Assembly (NCBI GenBank): GCA_030648615.1 | Contig: JAUSHJ010000042.1 | Span: forward strand, 1-61,590 | Origin: Candidatus Micrarchaeota archaeon | GTDB taxonomy: Archaea > Micrarchaeota > Micrarchaeia > Anstonellales > Bilamarchaeaceae | DNA: 61,590 bases | Direction of reading: 5' to 3' | Part shown: positions 23,016-40,651 of the stretch, piece by piece | How positions within the stretch are numbered: position 1 is the first letter of the stretch | Layout: every line of letters begins with the position of its first letter | The notes under the pieces: generated by a model | Database searches by the model: none | What the model was told of the DNA's origin: nothing | Seen by the model: only the letters and a program-made list of their open reading frames with translations | Program-made: the position numbers and the translations under genes

Positions 23016-23432
23016 ATGAAATCTATAACAGTAATTGCAGATGACAGAGTAGGTCTTTTAGCAGATATATCATACCTTCTTGGAAAAGCAAAAATAAACA
23101 TTGAATCGATTGGACTGGAAGTCGTTGCCGGCAAAGCAGTAATGTCTCTTACTTTGAAAGATCCTGAAAAAGCTAAGACTGTCCTAGAACATGCTGGATA
23201 TGAGGTCACTGAAACGAACATGATAGTAGTAAAACTAAATGACCAACCAGGAGAACTTGGAAAAATTACAAGTATGATGGCTCAGGAAAAAATAAATATT
23301 GAGAATATACATATGCTATCAAAAGATGGTAAAGCTACGATTATAGCTATTAAAGTGGATAAACCAAAAAGAGCATTAAAACTTCTAGAACCATACCTTG
23401 TAAATAGAGAAGAATTAACTGGTGTAAATTAA
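23016..23432 (+). CDS. tandem ACT-domain protein
   Basis: Two ~65-aa repeats with 'DRVGLLADIS' / 'DQPGELGKITS' ACT signatures. Confidence 0.65.
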   Translation: MKSITVIADDRVGLLADISYLLGKAKINIESIGLEVVAGKAVMSLTLKDPEKAKTVLEHAGYEVTETNMIVVKLNDQPGELGKITSMMAQEKINIENIHMLSKDGKATIIAIKVDKPKRALKLLEPYLVNREELTGVN

Positions 23433-24484
23433 TCCAACTCCAGTTCAATCTCTTTTTCTTTTTTATTTATTTTAGCATTAGGCAATTTATTCTCAAGATC
23501 ATTTATATTTGTTTTTTCAGCCATTGCTAGCAATGATTCTACTTTCTCGTAATTTGAATAAATAAAATCGCCTTTTGCCTTAAGTTCTTTTTCTTCCTCG
23601 TTCAGAGTAACCAAACGAGCTTCCTGCTCTTCTAACCTTTTTTGCAATTTATCCAGTTCAACATTACGCTCCTCTTTTGCATTTAGATAAAATAAATCTG
23701 CAACTTCGCTAAGTGTTTCAAATGACTTAGTTTCAAAATCAGAATATTTGGAGAATTTTATTAAACCATAGTCAACTATTTGGCTATCTTTGTAGAAACC
23801 TACTGGAGCAAGATGTTTTCTTATAATATCTAATTGAGAAGTTATAGACCCTAGTTCTGATTTTGTCACCGTATTACCAGGCTTCTTCTCTTCTATTTTA
23901 CAAATAGACAATATTTCCTTCGCGTATTCTTTTCCAAGTGGCATCTGAAGAAGTGCACTTATTATATATTTCTCAGATAATGCATCTTCTAGTTTTTCCT
24001 TAACGTTTGATTTTGGATAATTGTATTCAACACCACGTTTTATTTTTCTGTCTTTCCATTCCTCATCCTTAACTGCAAATAAGGTTTTTCCATCTCGCAC
24101 CAGTACAAGATTACCTTTGGCAAATCCTTCATAAACTAAAGTTCCTCCGTCAAACTCAAATGCAATTATCCTATCATTGTTTATCTGTTTTACTGATATT
24201 AGTTTACTGCCTTCTAATTCTTTTCTTAACCCTTGAACGAAACCGTCTCCTTCTTCACCTTCTTCCATGAATTTTGAGGCATTAATTCGCATGCCTAGAT
24301 CTATGGATAGAGAAATATCTCCAAGTTTTATTCTGTACCTGCCTTCGGCTATGAAGTATATCTTATTGAACCTTCTGCCTAGCAGATTATCAAGTTCTTT
24401 TAGTATGAACTGATATTCTATGTTTTCCATCGGTCTGCCCTGTGGGGCAGATCTGTCGACCCTTCGGTTCTCCATCGCACGCAT
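23429..24484 (-). CDS. NFACT-N domain protein (N-terminal half of a NEMF/RqcH/FbpA-type ribosome quality-control factor)
   Basis: 'FILKELDNLLGRRFNKIYFIAEGRYRIKL' with a coiled-coil C-terminus. The partner NFACT-R gene is at 36817-37599. Confidence 0.65.
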   Translation of the reverse strand: MRAMENRRVDRSAPQGRPMENIEYQFILKELDNLLGRRFNKIYFIAEGRYRIKLGDISLSIDLGMRINASKFMEEGEEGDGFVQGLRKELEGSKLISVKQINNDRIIAFEFDGGTLVYEGFAKGNLVLVRDGKTLFAVKDEEWKDRKIKRGVEYNYPKSNVKEKLEDALSEKYIISALLQMPLGKEYAKEILSICKIEEKKPGNTVTKSELGSITSQLDIIRKHLAPVGFYKDSQIVDYGLIKFSKYSDFETKSFETLSEVADLFYLNAKEERNVELDKLQKRLEEQEARLVTLNEEEKELKAKGDFIYSNYEKVESLLAMAEKTNINDLENKLPNAKINKKEKEIELELD

Positions 24485-24527
24485 ATAAAAATTGTTAGAT
24501 GATAGAATATTTATATAGATTGAATTT

Positions 24528-25535
24528 ATGAAAAAACCAATGTCTCGAAATATAATTTCTCGATCAGTTTGTCACGAGGGCAAAAAAATCGTGACAAATC
24601 TCTCGAGATCAAAACGTGATCTCTCAATGGATGCCGAAACAGCGTTATTAGCAATAATGGATAAAGAATCCCTGGAAAAACTAGTAGAGGAAAAAATAGA
24701 TGAATTTCATGGTTTCCTGAGCAAGGAAGTTGCCACTAAGTTAATAGCTAAAGAGAAAGGACTCTTGAAAAATGAAGAAAAGATAGTAACTATAAAAGAA
24801 ATTGCAGCAGGAGATAAAAACATCTCACTTGTGGCAAAGATAACAAAAGTATTCCCAATAATAGAATATGAAAGTGGCAAAAGGTCAAGAAAAATAATGA
24901 TTAATGATGGAGCTACAATTGCTATAAAACTATGGAACGAAGATGTAGAAATTGTAAAAAGGCTCAAGGTAGGAGATGAAGTGAACATACGCAGAGCCTA
25001 TGAGAAAAACGATGAACTAGCACTCAGTTATTCAGGAGAGTTTAAACTTTCTAAAAGTGCACCATTTTCTAAAATCAGTGAATTAGAGGATAATGCAATT
25101 GTAAACCTAAGAGGCACAGTCATAAGCAATCCTACGATTGGTATGCGTGAACTAGAATTCCAAATTTCTGATGGTGAAAATTCAGTTAAATGCATAACTC
25201 CAATAGACCTAGAAGTAGGAAAACACTTGACTAAAGATGATGAAGTGATAGTTGAGAATGCAGTATTCTCTAAAGGCGCCATAAGACTTCTCGGAGAAAG
25301 TAGATTACTAGTAAGAAAAACTAAAGGTATTATTGCTGGCAATGTAACTACTATGAATATTGTCAACGAAGTAATAGAACTGATTATAGGTGAACAAAAA
25401 GTCAAACTTAACAGAAACGAGTTTCTTTCGCTGATAAAAGTAAAAGTTGCCGAAGATATATCACTAGAGGCAATTGCAAGTCTTAAAAAGGATTCTCTGT
25501 TAAATACTTACGTCCGGATATCCGGACTTAACTAA
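24528..25535 (+). CDS. RPA-like ssDNA-binding protein with multiple OB folds
   Basis: Repeated OB-fold-like segments ('ISLVAKITKVF...GDEVNIRRAY', 'IVNLRGTVIS...'). The true start is likely M at 24627, downstream of the IR element. Confidence 0.45.
   Translation: MKKPMSRNIISRSVCHEGKKIVTNLSRSKRDLSMDAETALLAIMDKESLEKLVEEKIDEFHGFLSKEVATKLIAKEKGLLKNEEKIVTIKEIAAGDKNISLVAKITKVFPIIEYESGKRSRKIMINDGATIAIKLWNEDVEIVKRLKVGDEVNIRRAYEKNDELALSYSGEFKLSKSAPFSKISELEDNAIVNLRGTVISNPTIGMRELEFQISDGENSVKCITPIDLEVGKHLTKDDEVIVENAVFSKGAIRLLGESRLLVRKTKGIIAGNVTTMNIVNEVIELIIGEQKVKLNRNEFLSLIKVKVAEDISLEAIASLKKDSLLNTYVRISGLN
24568..24598. repeat. 29-bp inverted-repeat element, copy 1 (tttgtcacga-gggcaaaaaaa-tcgtgacaaa)
   Basis: Exact reverse complement of the copy at 29958-29987. 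Confidence 0.55.
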
Positions 25536-25551
25536 TCCAACTATGCTCTAG

Positions 25552-27720
25552 TTGGTCTTCCGAGGTAAAACGATGGCAAAAAACATCACTCTTAAAGTTG
25601 CTGAAGCATTCCAAAACGATATAGGTCGTGGAATCATAAGAGTAGACTCCAAAGCAAAAAATGAATTGGGAGTCTCCACTGGAGATATAATAAAACTTAC
25701 CGGCAAAAAAGCTGCTTTAGCTATAGTTTGGCAAGCTCATCCTGATGATGAAGGACTAGATATGGTTCGGACGGATGGAATCCTTAGACAAAATGCCGGC
25801 ATAGGTTTAGGCGATAAAGTACAATTAGAGCAGGTAGAAGTAAAAGAAGCAAAAAAACTAGTTTTAGCTCCAAAAGAACCAATGAGATACTCTGTAGGTT
25901 TTGACCAATATGTAAAAAAGAGACTTATCGGAAAACCAGTATTAAAAGGTAATTTATTACCTGTAGGTATATTCGGCACTTCTATTCCACTGGTAGTTGC
26001 ACAGGTAATTCCCCAGGGAGCAGTTATCATAACTGAAGAGACAGATGTAAAGATAAAAAATGAACCGATGAAGGATCTAACAAATATCCCCACAGTAACT
26101 TACGATGATGTGGGCGGCCTCAAGGATACACTACAAAAAGTAAGAGAAATGATTGAACTACCACTAAGACATCCTGAAATTTTTGAGAGATTGGGTATAG
26201 ACCCACCAAAAGGAGTTCTACTTTACGGCTCACCAGGTACTGGAAAAACATTATTGGCAAAAGCAGTTGCCAATGAAAGTGATGCTAATTTCTCATATAT
26301 AGGTGGACCAGAAGTTATCAGCAAATACGTTGGTGAAAGCGAAGAGCGACTTAGAAAACTATTCAAGGAAGCTGAAGAAAACGCACCTAGCATAATATTT
26401 CTAGATGAGATAGATGCCATTGCACCGAAACGCGAGGAAGTGTTCGGAGAAGTAGAAAAAAGGATCGTTTCCCAACTTTTGACATTAATGGATGGACTTA
26501 AAGCTCGTGGCGAAGTTATAGTTATAGGAGCTACTAATAGACCGGATTCTCTTGACCCCGCATTGCGAAGACCAGGAAGGTTTGACAGAGAAATTGAAAT
26601 CGGAATTCCTGATAGAACAGGTAGAAACGAAATATTGAATATTCACGTAAGAAACATGCCTTTGGAGCCAGACGTTAACATAAGCGAACTAGCTGCAATA
26701 ACTTATGGTTATACTGGTGCAGATCTTTCACTATTGACAAAAGAAGCTGCGCTTAAGGCACTACGAAGAATTTTACCTGAGATAAATATCGAAGACGAAT
26801 CCATACCTGCGAGTGTACTTGACAAACTAAAAGTCAGCAGAGATGATTTTTTCAATGGATTACGCGAAGTACAGCCAAGTGCACTTAGAGAAGTATTCGT
26901 TGAAAAACCAAATGTCAAGTGGGAAGACATTGGTGGCATGGAAAACGTAAAAAGCGAAATACAGGAAGCTGTAGAATTGCCACTCAATACACCTGAAGTA
27001 TTTGAAAAGATGGGCATACGACCCCTTAAGGGAATATTGCTCTACGGACCTCCTGGTACCGGAAAGACACTATTGGCAAAAGCAGTTGCAAACGAAAGCA
27101 ATGCAAATTTCATAGGCATAAGCGGTACACAAATACTTAGTAAATACGTTGGTGAAAGTGAAAAAGCAGTACGTGAATTATTCAAAAAAGCCAGGATGGC
27201 AGCACCTTGCATATTATTTATAGATGAAATAGATTCCATAGCACCAATACGTTCAGGTACTAACGAAGGTCACCATACCTTAGAAAGAGTAGTAGACACT
27301 TTGTTAACTGAAATAGATGGATTGAGAAGTCTGAAAAGTGTCGTAGTAATTGGAGCTACAAACAGGCCGGACATGCTAGATCCCGCACTTATGAGAGGCG
27401 GCAGATTCGACAGAGCAATTGAAATAGGAATACCTAACGATGCTGGCAGACTTAAAATACTTGAAATACATACTAAAAAAATGCCACTTGATAAATCAGT
27501 TGATCTGAAAGAATTATCACAGATAACTGAGGGCTACACTGGAGCTGATTTGGAAAATCTTTGTAGAGAATCCGGTATGGCAGCAATAAGAGAAGGTGGA
27601 AAGAAAGTAACTAAAGATAATTTTGCGTTTGCACTAAAAGCAATAATTCCAAATGTGAGGAAATCTGATATTGAAAGTGTACAAAAATTCAAAAATGCCA
27701 CAACGGCAATGTATCGATAA
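25552..27720 (+). CDS. cdc48: Cdc48/VCP-like AAA+ ATPase
   Basis: Two AAA modules (Walker A 'GSPGTGKT' and 'GPPGTGKT'; 'IIFLDEIDA' and 'ILFIDEIDS'). N-domain present. Confidence 0.9.
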
Positions 27721-27736
27721 ATGCTGGTAAATGCTA

Positions 27737-27794
27737 GACAAGCTTGTCGCTCAGAGCGACAAGATGTCCATTGTTCGATATGTCGAACAATTGG
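27737..27794. repeat. hairpin element (family B), intergenic copy
   Basis: cttgtcgc-tcaga-gcgacaag, then ccattgttcga-tatg-tcgaacaattgg (asymmetric stem). About 85% identical over 40 nt to the copy inside argS. Confidence 0.55.
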
Positions 27795-27814
27795 AAGGTA
27801 GAGGCTAGAACGTT

Positions 27815-28201
27815 ATGACGACAAAAATAGCAATATTTGGAAAACTATTACTAGTTTCACTTGCCATTGCGTTAGTAACATTTGCACTTTTGCCTGAAGC
27901 GGGATTTTTATTTCTTACAAAAATAATTGCATTTGGAATTGCAATTTCCATTGCTAGTTCTTTGATTTACCCTGAATTAAGAGGCGTGAAAAAGGGAGAT
28001 CCTGTTTCCGTAGTCACAAGTTCTTCGATACCTGCATTGATTGGCAGAGTAGGAAGAGCACTGTCAAACGGGAAAAAAAGCAGCGAAATAAGAGTGCGTT
28101 TTGATAATGGTGAAGAAGCTATGGGAATCATAGAAGGTTATGCAGGTTTTATCTCTCCACCTAAAGTTAGAATTTTATATGAAGAAAGAATAAACGAGTA
28201 G
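27815..28201 (+). CDS. membrane protein, hypothetical
   Basis: Two N-terminal TM helices. Immediately upstream of the M50 protease gene. Confidence 0.4.
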   Translation: MTTKIAIFGKLLLVSLAIALVTFALLPEAGFLFLTKIIAFGIAISIASSLIYPELRGVKKGDPVSVVTSSSIPALIGRVGRALSNGKKSSEIRVRFDNGEEAMGIIEGYAGFISPPKVRILYEERINE

Positions 28202-28206
28202 ATTTC

Positions 28207-28986
28207 ATGGATTTAAGTGCGCACATTGAGAAAGATGAATTGTCCCGTGGGACAAATATCTCGACAATAAGTCTCGATGAGGCTAAGCATATAATAATAT
28301 CAGTGCTTGCCATTTCCATAGCATTTTCCATAGCGTACTTGAATACAGAAAACCAAAATGGCATAAGTGTTTTCCTTAAATATCCTGCTAGCTTTTTGTT
28401 ATTTTGTTTCTTTTCACTTGTAGGAGTAGGAAGCGGTTTTATACTTCACGAACTTGGACATAAAATTGTTGCAATCCACTATGGAGCATATGCAAAATTC
28501 AACATGTGGACTAAGGGACTCATTTTCATGTTCATCACATCTATTTTTGGAATGTTATTTGCAGCACCTGGTGCAGTTTATATTTATTCGAGCACCATAA
28601 CGAAGAAACAGAATGGTATAATTTCTGCTGTTGGTCCAATAATAAATTTAGTAATAGCATTGGTATTTGTATTTCTTATGAGAGTAAAACCGCTCTACAT
28701 TCCATTTCCATTTGAAATCCCAGTACTCGTAAGCACGAATAATATGCTTGATGTTTGGCTGCTTGGAGCACAAATGAATGTTGTTCTATCACTATTCAAT
28801 ATGATACCTGCATTTCCTCTTGATGGTAGCAAGGTATTTATGTGGAACAAATTTGCCTGGGTTGGAATTGTTTTAGTATGTATGATTATAGCAGTAAAAA
28901 TATTCTCTTCCATAGATATAGTGATAACATGGCTCGTATTAATGGCGATTGCACTTGTCTTCTCTAAACTTGTTTTCAGGTCTTGA
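28207..28986 (+). CDS. site-2-protease-like zinc metalloprotease (peptidase M50)
   Basis: 'HELGH' in a TM helix plus the downstream 'NMIPAFPLDGSKV' (LDG) motif. Confidence 0.7.
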   Translation: MDLSAHIEKDELSRGTNISTISLDEAKHIIISVLAISIAFSIAYLNTENQNGISVFLKYPASFLLFCFFSLVGVGSGFILHELGHKIVAIHYGAYAKFNMWTKGLIFMFITSIFGMLFAAPGAVYIYSSTITKKQNGIISAVGPIINLVIALVFVFLMRVKPLYIPFPFEIPVLVSTNNMLDVWLLGAQMNVVLSLFNMIPAFPLDGSKVFMWNKFAWVGIVLVCMIIAVKIFSSIDIVITWLVLMAIALVFSKLVFRS

Positions 28987-29559: not shown

Positions 29560-30150
29560 AACGAGTAATTAAAAGCTTCTGAATACTAAGCATATATGGG
29601 CTAGATTGGGGCCAGGGGTCCCAGCACCGTACATCCCCTTTAGACGGGTCGAAGACCCGGGGCGTTATATAATTCTAAGATGCCTTCTGTTTTAAGCGTC
29701 GATGCTCTGCCTCATATGGCAGTCTTTACGCATCAACCGAGCCAGATCGAAAGAAGCAACTCTAAATGCATAAAACTGTGCTTGTGAGATACAGAGTGGA
29801 GCTGATGGCAGAAGCTCCTTCTTAGTGTTACTATGGCCAACCGGGATGCCCATTTTGAAACAAAATGGGCTGAATTTACTAACAAGTAAATCGGATGCCC
29901 ACTCTACTTATGATAAACTAAGGTTCGTGGACCTTTGACGTGTATTCACGTCAAAATTTGTCACGATTTTTTTGCCCTCGTGACAACCCTTCCTAGTCTT
30001 CAGTTTCGCTTATAGACGGAATTCCAGTCAGTTTGCCCTAAAGGCAAATCCCTCGAGCATAGCTCTCGGTCACTCCGCTATCGCTACGTGACAGCCAACA
30101 CGTATCTGTTCTTTCTTGTAAATCGTCAACTGTCGAAAAAAACTACATAA
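29560..30150. other. ORF-free, hairpin-rich ~600-bp region; candidate structured ncRNA or degraded gene
   Basis: No ORF of 60 aa or more on either strand. GC-rich core at 29595-29660 (ggggccaggggtccc..., cgggtc-gaa-gacccg). Downstream hairpins ttgacgtg-tattc-acgtcaaa, tttgcc-ctaaa-ggcaaa, and the 29-bp IR element. Confidence 0.25.
29958..29987. repeat. 29-bp inverted-repeat element, copy 2 (inverted relative to copy 1)
   Basis: tttgtcacga-tttttttgccc-tcgtgacaa, the exact reverse complement of 24568-24598. Confidence 0.55.
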
Positions 30151-35366: not shown

Positions 35367-35458
35367 AATATACCTTAGTTATCAAAATTGATAATTAAAG
35401 TAAAAACAAAGCTTAATATACCTTAGTTATCAAAATTGATAATTATGGTAAAAACAAA
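35367..35458 (+). promoter_or_regulatory. 44-nt tandem direct repeat (x2, period 48 nt) containing the ttatcaaaattgataa palindrome; candidate AbiEi operator
   Basis: Copy 1 is at 35367-35410 and copy 2 at 35415-35458, identical except 'taaag' versus 'tatgg'. Copy 2 overlaps the AbiEi start codon. Confidence 0.5.
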
Positions 35459-36056
35459 TAAGATTATGATTTTGAAAGAATTACAAAAATACCCAGTATT
35501 CACTGCCAAAACTATTAGAGATATTACAGGCAAAGAAAGGCAGTATGGCAATCTGATACTTCATAGATTAAAAAAAGCAGGTCTGATTTTTAAACTCGAG
35601 AGAGATAAATATACTGTACATGAAGATTCTTGGATAGTAGCTTCAAATATTCTATGGCCATCATATATATCTGGTTGGGCAGCCCTCCAGTATTATCATT
35701 TAACTGAACAACTCCCGTGGCGCATAGATATAATAACCACCGGGCAAAAGAAGAAAAGAGAAATAACTTTTGGAAATTCAAGAATACGTTTCATTAAAAC
35801 AAAACCAGAATATATGTTCGGATTTAGAAAAGAGCATTATCACGGTTTTGAGATATTCATAGCAGAAAAAGAAAAGTGTATTGCAGATAGTTTTGTTTTT
35901 AAGAAAGTTTCGGACGAAGAATTATTAGACATCGTATCCAAACATAAAGAAGAGTTAGACATAAGATTAATAACTAAATATATAAAAAAAATGGTTCGTC
36001 GTCCATGGGCGAAGAACGCCGAATATTTTTTAGAGAGGCTCAATACACATGCTTAG
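35436..36056 (+). CDS. AbiEi-like antitoxin / transcriptional regulator (type IV TA, abortive infection)
   Basis: N-terminal wHTH 'ILKELQKYPVFTAKTIRDITGKERQYGNLILHRLKKAGLI'. 8-nt overlap with the downstream DUF1814 gene. The true start is possibly M at 35445. Confidence 0.6.
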   Translation: MIIMVKTNKIMILKELQKYPVFTAKTIRDITGKERQYGNLILHRLKKAGLIFKLERDKYTVHEDSWIVASNILWPSYISGWAALQYYHLTEQLPWRIDIITTGQKKKREITFGNSRIRFIKTKPEYMFGFRKEHYHGFEIFIAEKEKCIADSFVFKKVSDEELLDIVSKHKEELDIRLITKYIKKMVRRPWAKNAEYFLERLNTHA

Positions 36057-36807
36057 CAGAAATGAATTGGAAACAATGATGCAACTGAAACGACTCAGTA
36101 TTGTCCAGACTGAAAAAGATTATCTTCAAAACATTCTCCTTTATACGATATATTCGGTTGCTGGTAGAGAACTGATTTTCAAAGGGGGCACATGCTTATA
36201 CAAGGTATATGGCCTGAATAGATTTAGCGAAGACCTTGATTTTTCCTTAACTAAATATTTTGACTTTGAAAAGTTAGTGAAAAAGATATTATTTATGACA
36301 GGACAAACTGGATTATATGGAAAGGTAAAAACATTTGAAAAATATCAGAATCAGTTTAATATAAATATGGAATTCAAAGGACCACTATATTCAGGAAATC
36401 CAAAAAGTCTATGCTTTATAGGTCTTGACATCAGTATGCGTGAAAAACCATTTTTATCACCGGAGAAGCAAACTTTGAATCAGTTCTACAAAGATATACC
36501 GGCATTTGATATATTTACAATGGATTTAAGAGAAATTCTTGTAGAAAAAATTGCGGCAACACATGACAGAAAAAAACCAAGAGATGTTTATGATATTTGG
36601 TTTCTTTTAAAATTTAAAAATGTCCAAATTGATTATGAGCTTCTGCAAAAAAAATTGAAAAAACGTAAAATATCTTTTGAAAAAGACACATTTCTTCATA
36701 AGATACAGGAAAAAGAACCGATGTGGAAAGGAGATTTGACACCATTGATTGCATCAGAATTACCCCCATTCGATCAGGTAAAAAAGGAGATTGAAGAAAG
36801 ATTATGA
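36049..36807 (+). CDS. AbiEii/AbiGii-family nucleotidyltransferase toxin (DUF1814)
   Basis: 'GGTCLYKVYGLNRFSEDLDFS' hallmark motif. Confidence 0.7.
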   Translation: MLSRNELETMMQLKRLSIVQTEKDYLQNILLYTIYSVAGRELIFKGGTCLYKVYGLNRFSEDLDFSLTKYFDFEKLVKKILFMTGQTGLYGKVKTFEKYQNQFNINMEFKGPLYSGNPKSLCFIGLDISMREKPFLSPEKQTLNQFYKDIPAFDIFTMDLREILVEKIAATHDRKKPRDVYDIWFLLKFKNVQIDYELLQKKLKKRKISFEKDTFLHKIQEKEPMWKGDLTPLIASELPPFDQVKKEIEERL

Positions 36808-36816
36808 GGTTAAATT

Positions 36817-37599
36817 ATGAACATTAAACTCAAAATAGGTAAAACCGTCCACGAGAACGCTGCACGTTACTACGAACAGGCAAAAGAAGCCAGGAAAAAG
36901 ATGGACGGGCTTAAGCAAGCAATAGAAGAAACAAAAAAGGAAATGATTAAATCAGAAAAGAAAGCTAAAGAAAATAAAAAACTAATAAAGACTAAAAAAG
37001 AAAAAAAATGGTTCGAAAAACTGCACTGGTTTTACACTTCAAAAGGAAAAATGGCTATAGGAGGAAGAAATGCACAGCAAAATGATCAGGTAGTTTCAAA
37101 ATACATGGAAGACAGAGACTTGTTTTTCCATGCTGATATCCAGGGAGCTACAGTGGTTATATTGAAGGATGGCATAGATGCAGAAGACAGTGAATTGTTA
37201 GAAACAGCACAGTTTGCAGCCAGCTTTAGCAATGCATGGAAAAACGGTAATGCATCTGTGGATGTCTATGCGGTAAAAAAGGATCAGCTTGCAAAACATA
37301 CAAGTGGCGGTTATATCCCAACAGGGGCTTTTGCCATAACTGGAGAAAGAAAATGGTTCAAGAAAATGAAGATGGCTCTAAGACTTGGTAGAAGCCCTAT
37401 GGTAGAGGGTGGAGGCATACTGATTGTACCTGAGAATTGTACTAAAAAGCTTGAAAATGAAGTTACACTTTTTCCTGCTGCTGCCGGAAAAGACAAGGGA
37501 GAGTTAACAAAAACTCTTGCGAAAAGATTTGCTGTACATCCTGATGAATTAATGGAAGTACTGCCTAATGGGAAAACTAAGATGGTGTACAAGGATTAA
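36817..37599 (+). CDS. NFACT-R (DUF814) domain protein, the C-terminal half of a NEMF/RqcH-type factor
   Basis: 'LHWFYTSKGKMAIGGRNAQQNDQVVSKYMEDRDLFFHADIQGATVVIL'. Confidence 0.65.
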   Translation: MNIKLKIGKTVHENAARYYEQAKEARKKMDGLKQAIEETKKEMIKSEKKAKENKKLIKTKKEKKWFEKLHWFYTSKGKMAIGGRNAQQNDQVVSKYMEDRDLFFHADIQGATVVILKDGIDAEDSELLETAQFAASFSNAWKNGNASVDVYAVKKDQLAKHTSGGYIPTGAFAITGERKWFKKMKMALRLGRSPMVEGGGILIVPENCTKKLENEVTLFPAAAGKDKGELTKTLAKRFAVHPDELMEVLPNGKTKMVYKD

Positions 37600-37693: not shown

Positions 37694-40651
37694 ATGGCAC
37701 AAAGACTTGAAGTAAATATTAAGAGCAACATTAAGGATGTTGTAGGCGACGGAGTACTGGCCAGAGTTAAAAATGAATTGAATATTACACTTTCTTCAGT
37801 TAATTTCGTAGAAGCGTATAACATAGATGCCGATCGAGAAGTTCGAGGAACTTCGAAAGATGTGACCGAAGGTCACACTGAGTTATCAGAAGAAGAACTT
37901 GATAAACTTGGCAGAGAAGTTTTTGCAGATATTATAATTCAGGATTGTAACTACAAACAAACTACTTTTTCAGATAAATGGAGAATTGAAATCGGTTACT
38001 TGCCAGGTGTAACTGACAACGTAGGAAATACCGCAAGAGAAGCGATTTACGATGCTCTGGGAAAAAATGTAGATGTTTACTACTCACGAGTTTTTGCAAT
38101 TGAAGGAAAGGAAATTGAAGAACATGACTGCCAAAAAATCGCTGCGTTGCTCCATAATCAGCTTATTGAAAAGGCAATGATCAATAAACCAAATGATTTG
38201 ATAGTCCCATATATTCCAAAAGTAATCCTCAAGCATGAACCACACATAGAAAAAATAATGTTGCCAGTATCAGAAGCAAAACTCAGACTACTTGCAAAAG
38301 AACGGCTACTCGCTTTAAGCATAGATGAATTTAAAACAATAAAAATATATTTAAAAGAGCCACAAGTAATTGAGGAAAGAAAAAGAGTAGGTCTAGACCA
38401 TAGACTTACTGATGTAGAATTAGAAGCGATAGCACAGACATGGAGTGAACATTGCAAACATAAAATATTCAACGCTGAAATAAATTATATTGAAAATGGA
38501 GAACCTCATGCAATAAACTCTATATTTTCAACATTCATAAGAGGAGCAACAGAAACAGTAAAAAAACCGTATATAGTGAGCGTATTCAAGGATAATGGAG
38601 GAATAATAAAATTCAACCATGATTATGATATCTCTGTAAAAGTAGAAACACATAATGCACCAAGTGCTCTGGATCCTTACGGAGGAGCATTAACTGGAAT
38701 ACTAGGTGTACAGAGAGACATTCTTGGGACCGGTATTGGATCTTTACCAATAGCTAACCTAGATGTATTGTGTTTTGGATATCCTAACGAAACCCATGTG
38801 CCAAAAGGAATAATACACCCAAAAAGAATCTACCAAGGAGTAACAAAAGGAATTGAACATGGTGGAAATAAAATGGGTATTCCTACGGTTAATGGATCAA
38901 TAACGTTTGAACACGGATTTACTGCACGACCATTGGTTTATTGTGGGACAATCGGAATCATGCCATCTAAAATAGGCGATAAAAAAACCTGTGAAAAACA
39001 CATAAAACCTGGATACCTCGCAGTAATGGTCGGTGGAAGAATAGGCAAAGACGGCATTCATGGTGCAACTTTTTCTTCTCAGCAAATAGATGAAACCGTC
39101 CCACAAAGTGTTGTTCAGATAGGAGATCCGATAACTCAAAAGAAAGTTCTTGATTTTGTAATAGAAGCACGAGATTTACAATTGTATGAAGCTATAACAG
39201 ACAATGGTGCAGGCGGCATATCTTCAAGCATTGGAGAACTTGCACAACTTAGCAATGGTTGTGAAATATATCTGGAAAAATGCCCATTAAAATATGTGGG
39301 ATTAAATCCTTGGGAAATATTAGTTAGTGAATCGCAAGAGAGAATGACGCTCGCAGTGCCTATGGAAAAATTAGCAGAATTACAAAAAATAGCCAGGAAA
39401 CATGCTACCGAAGTAACAGTAGTTGGTAAATTTACTAACAGTGGAAAATTCCACGTAATGTTTAGAGATATTACAGCTGCTTATCTTGATCTTAGATTCC
39501 TTCACGAAGGTTTACCACAATTAAAACTCAGTGCAGAATGGAAAAGAAAGGTATTTCCTGAACCTTCAATAATTGAAACTGATCTTGGGATAATATTAGA
39601 AAGATTATTGGCATCTCCAAACATCGCATCGAAAGAAGAAGTTATTCGTAGATATGATCATGAAGTGAAAGGCATGAGCGTCATAAAACCATTGATGCGA
39701 GGACCTAATGACGCTGGCGTAATAAAACCGGTATACTCAAGTGACGAAGGACTCGTAATAGCGCATGGGATTTGTCCCAAATATATCCAAGACAGCTATG
39801 ACATGAGTTGCATGGCATTTGATGAAGCTGTACGGAATGCGATTGCAGTAGGAGCAAAATTCGGTTACATGGCTTGTTTGGATAATTTCTCCTGGCCAGA
39901 CCCAGTTAAATCTGATAAAAATCCAGATGGAGAATATAAATTAGCTCAGCTTATTAGATCATGTATTGCAATTTATGAAATGGCAACAGATTATGGTGTT
40001 CCGATAATTTCTGGAAAAGACAGCATGAAAAATGATTACTTTTACGGAGATGTGAAATACTCCATACCTCCAACACTTCTAATCACTGTTGTCGGAAAGA
40101 TAGATGATGTAAAAAAAGCAGTGAGTGCTGATTTAAAACAAGCTGGAGATTACATTTACGTTCTTGGAAAAACCAGGGATGAATTGGGCGGTAGCGAGTA
40201 TTACAAATTATTCAATGGACTAGGAGATAAAAATCCCAAAGTACACAGAGAAGAATGCATACCACTCTATCGTGCTCTTGGAAAGACAATGGAAGATGGA
40301 TTGGTTTCCAGTTGCCACGATGTAAGTGATGGTGGTTTAGCAATTGCACTTGCAGAATGCACATTTGGCACCGGACTTGGTGCAGATTTAGACATTTCAC
40401 TTATACCCAGAGAAAACGAGAAAGAAGATGTACTTTTATTCTCCGAAAGCGCAGGAAGATTTGTTGTTTCGGTTAATGAAAAGAATGTTTCTGCTTTTGA
40501 GAAAGCGATGCATGGAACTAATTTTGCAAAGGCTGGCAGAGTTCGAGGAGATAAAAGATACATAATAAGAAGCGGGGAGAGACTTGTAATAAACAAAGAA
40601 GTGGAAACACTTAGGAACGAGTGGCTAAGCTTAGGGAAGAGGGTTTCTTGA
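37694..40651 (+). CDS. purL: FGAM synthase II (PurL) with an N-terminal tandem PurS-like extension
   Basis: 'WSEHCKHKIF' and AIRS-like domains. The first ~160 aa form two PurS-like modules ('RLEVNIKSNIKDVVGDGVLARV...', 'RIEIGYLPGVTDNVGNTAREAIYDALG...'). 985 aa. Confidence 0.8.
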   Translation: MAQRLEVNIKSNIKDVVGDGVLARVKNELNITLSSVNFVEAYNIDADREVRGTSKDVTEGHTELSEEELDKLGREVFADIIIQDCNYKQTTFSDKWRIEIGYLPGVTDNVGNTAREAIYDALGKNVDVYYSRVFAIEGKEIEEHDCQKIAALLHNQLIEKAMINKPNDLIVPYIPKVILKHEPHIEKIMLPVSEAKLRLLAKERLLALSIDEFKTIKIYLKEPQVIEERKRVGLDHRLTDVELEAIAQTWSEHCKHKIFNAEINYIENGEPHAINSIFSTFIRGATETVKKPYIVSVFKDNGGIIKFNHDYDISVKVETHNAPSALDPYGGALTGILGVQRDILGTGIGSLPIANLDVLCFGYPNETHVPKGIIHPKRIYQGVTKGIEHGGNKMGIPTVNGSITFEHGFTARPLVYCGTIGIMPSKIGDKKTCEKHIKPGYLAVMVGGRIGKDGIHGATFSSQQIDETVPQSVVQIGDPITQKKVLDFVIEARDLQLYEAITDNGAGGISSSIGELAQLSNGCEIYLEKCPLKYVGLNPWEILVSESQERMTLAVPMEKLAELQKIARKHATEVTVVGKFTNSGKFHVMFRDITAAYLDLRFLHEGLPQLKLSAEWKRKVFPEPSIIETDLGIILERLLASPNIASKEEVIRRYDHEVKGMSVIKPLMRGPNDAGVIKPVYSSDEGLVIAHGICPKYIQDSYDMSCMAFDEAVRNAIAVGAKFGYMACLDNFSWPDPVKSDKNPDGEYKLAQLIRSCIAIYEMATDYGVPIISGKDSMKNDYFYGDVKYSIPPTLLITVVGKIDDVKKAVSADLKQAGDYIYVLGKTRDELGGSEYYKLFNGLGDKNPKVHREECIPLYRALGKTMEDGLVSSCHDVSDGGLAIALAECTFGTGLGADLDISLIPRENEKEDVLLFSESAGRFVVSVNEKNVSAFEKAMHGTNFAKAGRVRGDKRYIIRSGERLVINKEVETLRNEWLSLGKRVS

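Follow-up and report, generated by a model that had tools for sequence, protein, structure and literature searches.

A ribosome quality-control factor of the RqcH/NEMF family is encoded in two pieces on a 61,590-nt contig of Candidatus Micrarchaeota archaeon (JAUSHJ010000042.1, positions 1–61,590; hereafter the window). The gene for the N-terminal half (N-half) is found at 23429–24484 on the minus strand and the gene for the C-terminal half (C-half) at 36817–37599 on the plus strand, and the two open reading frames (ORFs) complement each other as parts of one archaeal RqcH/NEMF protein. The chain is not cut between domains but inside the coiled-coil/M module, where the small M domain, which sits at the coiled-coil tip, makes a beta-hairpin turn. 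Across many species both halves are conserved together with their key motifs. The two products are probably subunits of a single factor that re-associate as a non-covalent heterodimer, a reading to which a probability of about 0.8 is given.

Identification of the two halves

Profile searches of all ORFs of the window revealed one N-half and one C-half, no other copy of either and no intact NFACT gene. The longest ORF of the N-half gene encodes 351 amino acids (aa) containing the NFACT-N domain, the helix-hairpin-helix (HhH) region, helix 1 of the coiled coil and strands 1 and 2 of the M domain. The C-half gene encodes 260 aa containing M strand 3, coiled-coil helix 2, the NFACT-R domain and an archaeal C-terminal domain. 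In Pfam the N-half matched NFACT_N (E=5e-25, profile positions 8–373 of 456), while the C-half matched the full profile of NFACT-R_1 (E=1.8e-29) and additionally the tail of NFACT_N (positions 369–418 of 456). When the ORFs were compared with the NCBIfam model RqcH_arch (NF041120, 645 positions), the N-half spanned positions 3–370 (E=1e-48, 166.3 bits) and the C-half positions 380–644 (E=1e-78, 265.5 bits), and this complementary coverage identifies the ORFs as two pieces of one protein. The equivalog cut-off of RqcH_arch is 400 bits; each half alone falls below it and the summed score of 431.8 bits exceeds it, with the match distributed over two ORFs 12.3 kb apart rather than over a single polypeptide.

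The original prediction, made from the sequence of the window, had placed an NFACT-N gene and an NFACT-R gene at these positions, about 12 kb apart on opposite strands. Both genes were present, divergently oriented and separated by 12,332 bp, and the profile searches assigned them to two complementary parts of one family, not to unrelated families. The prediction had also called for a check that the middle coiled-coil/HhH region is contained in one of the two ORFs; the HhH region and helix 1 lie in the N-half and helix 2 lies in the C-half, so that the module is shared.

Position of the cut and structural model

The junction was examined in an alignment of an in-silico fusion of both products with 49 full-length archaeal proteins. 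The N-half terminates in KEIELELD and the C-half begins with MNIKLKIGKTVHENAARYY (MNIKLKI), and together these align to NKVTLNL-DG-IKVSLDVEKSLEENAELYY of Pyrococcus furiosus aRqcH (VTLNL-DG-IKVSLDV). The junction is seamless relative to the full-length proteins, with no residue lost and none gained. The N-half aligns to residues 5–332 of P. furiosus aRqcH, and residue 1 of the C-half corresponds to residue 380 of the same protein, the match continuing through residue 640.

An AlphaFold model was obtained for the covalent in-silico fusion using a 117-row alignment that included one-piece homologues as a guide, giving a predicted local distance difference test score (pLDDT) of 95.8 and a predicted template modelling score (pTM) of 0.75. 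The model consists of the NFACT-N sheet, the HhH helices, a helix at residues 257–306, three short strands, a return helix at residues 344–386, NFACT-R and the C-terminal domain. The HhH region, the two-helix coiled coil and the M domain are therefore all predicted to be present, divided between the two gene products, and the gene junction (fusion residues 333 and 334) is placed in the turn between strands 327–331 and 335–339. The closest structural match of the fusion model was ribosome-bound human NEMF (9gy4_Z, E=1.7e-35, template modelling score 0.62), followed by yeast Rqc2 and Bacillus subtilis RqcH. A model of the fusion calculated from the single sequence was poor (pLDDT 42), yet helix 1 was confidently predicted there.

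Coiled-coil helix 1 comprises N-half residues ~275–324 (23513–23662, minus strand) and appears in the model as the near-continuous helices 257–292 and 294–306, with pLDDT >95. The last two N-half strands, KINK and EIELEL, and the terminal Asp351 (23432–23476, minus strand) are modelled as strands 319–322 and 327–331 and align with kviVdL-DG of the full-length proteins. The first C-half strand, NIKLK (36820–36834, plus strand; model strand 335–339), forms the C-side of the cut hairpin and aligns with xeVeLDi. Helix 2, at C-half residues ~11–53 (36847–36975, plus strand; model helix 344–386), contains the conserved ENAxxYY motif and aligns to NEMF from residue 465 and to Rqc2 from residue 505 onward. 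The Pfam match to NFACT-R covers C-half residues 68–176 (37018–37344, plus strand), and the archaeal-type C-terminal domain occupies residues ~179–258 (37351–37590, plus strand), where RqcH_arch is matched to position 644 of 645 and P. furiosus aRqcH to residue 640; this domain is modelled as a high-confidence fold. No match to Pfam NFACT-C was obtained in the C-half at E≤0.1.

Conservation of the split across Micrarchaeota

The C-half was used in a HMMER search of 1.84 billion representative proteins, and the best 150 matches were considered. At least 85% of the C-half was covered by 143 of these, 83 of which are stand-alone proteins shorter than 330 aa, and in most of the short forms the first five residues align to C-half residues 1–5. 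In proteins of 590–720 aa, C-half residues 2–14 align instead at residues ~330–480. One-piece forms of this size were found in P. furiosus, Methanomicrobia and Thermoprotei, in agreement with the original prediction that the domains form one polypeptide in most archaea. The relatives of the N-half (n=47) are 270–396 aa long, all but two of them 301–396 aa, and the relatives of the C-half number 609, the 120 listed being 247–278 aa. The named carriers of these relatives were Micrarchaeota, Bilamarchaeaceae or 'ainarchaeum'.

A scan of GTDB species genomes gave 135 relatives, of which the best 80 loci were examined; all were Micrarchaeota, towards which the set is biased by the closer C-half alignment used as the query. 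A stand-alone C-half starting at this position was found in 80 of the 80 loci. An in-frame stop codon precedes it in every locus where the sequence permits checking, usually within 20 codons, and in 78 loci the start codon (ATG, or GTG in two) coincides with the aligned first position or lies no more than 2 codons from it. When a profile hidden Markov model of the N-half was applied, none of the 80 loci showed an N-half within 10 kb of its C-half. The C-termini of the N-halves fall on the same strand of the hairpin (...KKEKEIELEL) in 46 of 47 proteins, the remaining one extending 5 residues beyond. The split is conserved and is not an artefact.

The ratio of N-part to C-part conservation was 0.66–0.86 in the split pairs compared to 0.74 in one-piece proteins, with the N part evolving faster in both, and provided no indication that constraint on the N-half had relaxed once the gene was split. 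The residues with assigned functions are likewise retained. The DR motif of NFACT-N, Asp104-Arg105 (24170–24175, minus strand), corresponds to D97/R98 of B. subtilis RqcH, where it mediates the recognition of tRNA-Ala and where its mutation abolishes recognition (PMC8373112). All 47 N-halves carry both residues unchanged, together with an equally invariant downstream motif, E..F.KGN. Asp101 and His105 of NFACT-R are invariant across 45 diverse C-halves and lie in the stretch DLFFHAD, which probably corresponds to the DWH motif that B. subtilis RqcH requires for association with the 50S subunit. At the position aligned with His105 NEMF has a histidine and yeast Rqc2 does not, and the residue is present in one-piece archaeal proteins too.

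Distribution beyond Micrarchaeota and origin of the split

A profile constructed from four divergent N-only proteins retrieved 289 more N-halves. The 120 listed were almost all 330–395 aa in length, with three shorter or partial, and the carriers named among them were Candidatus Diapherotrites, 'ainarchaeum' or 'archaeon'. These divergent N-halves have a conserved context of their own, consisting of ferredoxin, geranylgeranyl reductase, the N-half and a PRC-barrel gene, and no C-half was found within 10 kb in the contexts checked. Stand-alone C-halves with the same start were also detected in metagenome-assembled genomes (MAGs) named Diapherotrites, Altiarchaeales and Woesearchaeota (NCBI names, which are approximate for MAGs), and the two that were checked in context proved to be genuinely separate genes, neither having an N-half in its vicinity. 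Related genomes share the split site, as the C-halves start and the N-halves end at the same hairpin. The comparison with related genomes that the original prediction had called for thus revealed a split that is not peculiar to this genome but phylum-wide, and that reaches beyond the phylum.

In a neighbour-joining tree of 143 C-regions, 63 of the 83 short forms, including that of the window, formed one pure clade, and full-length proteins were interspersed among the remaining 20; this tree is weakly resolved and fits one or several splits. The closest named full-length proteins were those of Pyrococcus, Methanomicrobia and Thermoprotei. Both halves were located on one contig in three genomes, in each case in a different orientation: divergent and 12 kb apart in the window, on the same strand and 6 kb apart in locus L001, and convergent and 23 kb apart in JBGFRX010000020.1. 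At the other loci the halves are more than 10 kb apart. Since the gene order around the halves varies, it gives no reliable indication of how the split arose.

A wider reading, which is tentative and on balance doubtful, joins these observations into a single cut in an early DPANN ancestor that was inherited widely and that turned RqcH into a dissociable two-part machine. The inheriting lineages would be the Micrarchaeota, Iainarchaeota/Diapherotrites, Woesearchaeota/Nanoarchaeota and Altiarchaeales-like archaea. The C-subunit of such a machine would be anchored on the 50S subunit while the N-subunit cycled with tRNA, and by analogy with Jlp2 the C-subunit may possess a release activity that depends on its invariant histidine. 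If true, a single ancestral cut would be a rare genomic change favouring the disputed monophyly of DPANN.

Proposed heterodimer and alternative explanations

In B. subtilis, RqcH touches the 50S subunit at two points only, through NFACT-R on the A-site finger and through the distal coiled-coil/M region on uL11/H44. The NFACT-N/HhH part of that protein is mobile and dispensable for 50S binding, and the helices of its coiled coil open like scissors during the cycle. The two-point contact and the scissor opening make the tip of the hairpin a plausible site for a tolerated break. A break at the tip keeps every domain intact and leaves each helix on its own functional head, and a heterodimer is therefore proposed. 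The RqcH gene would have been severed long ago at the beta-turn that marks the tip of the coiled-coil/M hairpin, giving an N-subunit with the tRNA-recognising NFACT-N/HhH head, helix 1 and two M strands, and a C-subunit with the third M strand, helix 2, NFACT-R and the archaeal C-terminal domain. The subunits would re-associate non-covalently through an antiparallel coiled coil of ~45 residues, completing the small sheet of the M domain across two chains. Assembled in this way, the factor would bind 50S subunits that are obstructed and would recruit tRNA in the manner of the one-piece protein, with the stalk base contacted by a surface built from both subunits. We infer that the heterodimer forms and that it is active in ribosome quality control.

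Several points weigh against this proposal. No activity data for an archaeal RqcH were found in the searchable literature. The co-occurrence of the halves was seen directly in only three genomes. The AlphaFold model was made for a covalent fusion, with full-length homologues as the guide, and it shows that the halves would be compatible with the fold rather than that they assemble. In eukaryotes, moreover, stand-alone NFACT-R proteins with a function of their own are known (Jlp2/CCDC25).

The main alternative is that the halves are functionally independent, with the C-half acting alone on the 50S subunit, for example in the manner of Jlp2, and the N-half acting as a free tRNA-binding protein. 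Such independence is considered unlikely, although it would fit genes that are dispersed and not co-transcribed, and the dispensability of the B. subtilis NFACT-N/HhH part for 50S binding. According to a preprint, Jlp2 is a peptidyl-tRNA release factor with a catalytic histidine, a conserved residue of the NFACT-R cavity, and Rqc2 lacks this histidine; the invariant His105 of the C-half, shared with NEMF but not with yeast Rqc2, could be read in the same way. His105 is also found in the one-piece archaeal proteins and in NEMF, however, and is thus not specific to the split forms. The C-half matches RqcH_arch from end to end and does not have the architecture of CCDC25, and the N-to-C conservation ratio is the same as in one-piece proteins. 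Both helices of the coiled coil and both sides of the M hairpin have been kept with zero residue loss, which is difficult to account for if the halves do not pair.

The restoration of a one-piece protein by a split intein or by RNA trans-splicing is very improbable. In Nanoarchaeum equitans the split DNA polymerase is joined by a split intein, and the tRNA halves of the same organism are trans-spliced. Neither ORF of the window contains an intein or Hint domain in Pfam, and the halves abut with no extra residues compared to full-length proteins, leaving no room for intein halves; on these two grounds the reading was rejected. The C-halves also begin with Met-Asn, Met-Lys or Met-Arg (Met-Asn in the window) and lack a Cys, Ser or Thr that could serve as the junction nucleophile, and the start and stop codons conserved in both ORFs also argue against this reading. 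Least credible of all is an artefact or a decaying gene, in which mis-assembly, a frameshift or a recent rearrangement would have left pseudogene fragments. The contig is metagenome-assembled and there is an odd 45-nt insert at the 5' end of the N-half, but start and stop codons are present for each half separately, the functional motifs show no variation, and the same boundary recurs in all 80 species-level loci as well as in hundreds of contigs that were assembled independently. The conservation data led to the rejection of this reading.

Start regions and genomic context

The first 18 codons of the N-half include the 45-nt insert, which is specific to this genome, and the alignment with homologues and with P. 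furiosus aRqcH begins at Met19 (nt 24430), an alternative start. The insert duplicates the 'MEN' start, making the true start codon of the N-half ambiguous. It is in frame (24422–24466, minus strand), has a GC content of 60% compared to 36% for the window, and is flanked by the near-identical 9-mers ATGGAGAAC and ATGGAAAAC. Within it are adjacent SalI (GTCGAC) and BglII (AGATCT) sites and a palindrome with a 6-bp stem, CTGCCC-CACA-GGGCAG. The insert is absent from a 72%-identical homologue (P0002) and present in an independent Logan assembly (P0001), and no further copies of its 36-nt GC-rich sequence or of the palindrome were found in the window. A TATA-box-like element, CTATATAAAT (24509–24518, minus strand), was read from the sequence 25–34 nt upstream of the first N-half ATG. 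It lies within a 43-bp spacer common to the N-half and a divergent RPA-like gene, and may be the promoter of the N-half. A putative Shine-Dalgarno-like GAGGT (36806–36810, plus strand), likewise read from the sequence, is located 6 nt before the ATG of the C-half and overlaps the stop codon of the upstream AbiEii gene.

An RPA-like gene with an OB-fold lies divergently 5' of the N-half in the window and in loci L003, L085 and L086. In the window it encodes 335 aa (replication factor A models, E=5e-14) and is followed by a CDC48 AAA ATPase and an M50 peptidase (24528–28986, plus strand), with the 43-bp spacer separating the group from the N-half. This arrangement recurs in other Micrarchaeota, in L003 and L086 and partly in L002 and L085; the run of RPA-like gene, CDC48, M50 peptidase and RIO1 is complete in L003 and L086, and in the window it extends through the M50 peptidase. 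In eukaryotes Cdc48 belongs to the RQC machinery, and its position near the N-half could equally be plain synteny. The CDC48 of L002 (1–2715), also near the N-half, is 1159 aa long and probably contains an intein, as suggested by a weak Pfam match to an intein-splicing domain. On the other side of the N-half an ACT-domain gene follows in the window, L001, L003, L085 and L086, with one gene between in L002, and DUF424 is next after the ACT gene in L001, L002, L003 and L086.

The gene immediately after the C-half is purL in the window, L001 and 18 of the 80 species loci. The window purL (37694–40651, plus strand) encodes a PurL of 985 aa; its N-terminal extension of ~230 aa gives a match to the large single-chain FGAM synthase (model positions 111–985 of 1290), and the glutaminase domain is absent. 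Directly upstream of the C-half is a pair of genes for an AbiEi antitoxin and an AbiEii nucleotidyltransferase toxin (35436–36807, plus strand), which looks like an insertion since in L001 PMT_2 and HGSNAT-like genes abut the C-half without the AbiE pair. In one Altiarchaeales-labelled case (L091, 6440–9871) the C-half is located just downstream of the stalk-base operon of uL11, uL1 and uL10, with one small reverse-strand gene between. In a Diapherotrites-labelled MAG (L004, 12704–13303) an AMMECR1 gene lies 1.5 kb from an N-only NFACT gene, echoing the neighbourhood of NFACT and AMMECR1 that Burroughs and Aravind (2014) described in archaea. The only Rfam match in the window was a signal recognition particle (SRP) RNA (29596–29853, plus strand), for which the bacterial large SRP model scored highest (75.9 bits) despite the archaeal host, and ARAGORN detected no tRNA genes across the 61.6 kb.

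Discussion

The one-piece archaeal RqcH, represented by P. furiosus aRqcH (Q8U137, 649 aa), has the same domains, order and motifs as the two halves described here, and the fusion model has the predicted fold of NEMF, Rqc2 and RqcH. The difference is that in the window the protein is encoded by two unlinked genes and the chain is broken at the turn of the M hairpin; most full-length proteins also have a longer M domain. Bacterial RqcH (B. subtilis YloA; PDB 7AS8, 7AQC) has in common the NFACT-N domain with its DR motif, the HhH region, the coiled-coil/M hairpin and NFACT-R, and its mechanism, the recruitment of tRNA-Ala onto 50S-peptidyl-tRNA, is the best characterised. It differs in being one polypeptide without the archaeal/eukaryotic C-terminal domain and in working with RqcP. 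CCDC25/Jlp2 resembles the C-half as a stand-alone NFACT-R domain with a coiled coil, the structural match being weak (E ~1e-4). Its coiled coil is C-terminal and it arose by partial duplication beside an intact NEMF/Rqc2, whereas the coiled coil of the C-half is N-terminal and is the cognate helix 2 of RqcH, with no intact copy in the window.

The original prediction regarded split genes as a trait of some DPANN archaea, and reviews document such genes in Nanoarchaeota and Micrarchaeota, naming reverse gyrase and tRNA synthetases. The present pair has the characteristics of this type of split, being a single gene in most archaea and here two non-adjacent ORFs with their own start and stop codons that cover the whole protein. 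Podar et al. (2013) reported a split 'predicted RNA-binding protein' in Nanoarchaeota (NEQ438/NEQ506 and Nst1_176/Nst1_251), divided at the same site in both, and their supplement assigns both Nst1 pieces to arCOG01695, equivalent to COG1293. COG1293 is RqcH (NFACT), and the Nanoarchaeota case is thus alike in family assignment, in its two distant genes and in belonging to a reduced-genome DPANN lineage, although of another phylum. The kind of split is therefore already known, including for the COG1293 family in Nanoarchaeota. What appears not to have been described so far is the case of the Micrarchaeota, how widely it extends and where exactly in the structure the cut lies: the NFACT paper of Burroughs and Aravind makes no mention of a split, no paper among the listed matches of a literature search joined DPANN or Micrarchaeota with NFACT, RqcH or NEMF, and a literature search for 'aRqcH' found nothing.

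As both halves score below the RqcH_arch cut-off, annotation pipelines name the halves separately and may score RqcH as absent from these genomes. Covalent continuity at the tip of the RqcH/NEMF coiled coil, which in B. subtilis touches the uL11 stalk base, appears to be dispensable. The natural two-piece version provides a defined cut site for the bacterial or human protein, which could separate ribosome anchoring from tRNA delivery. The identical split site in several DPANN-labelled lineages is a discrete character that bears on whether these lineages share it through common ancestry or through recurrent use, during reductive evolution, of a permissive site.

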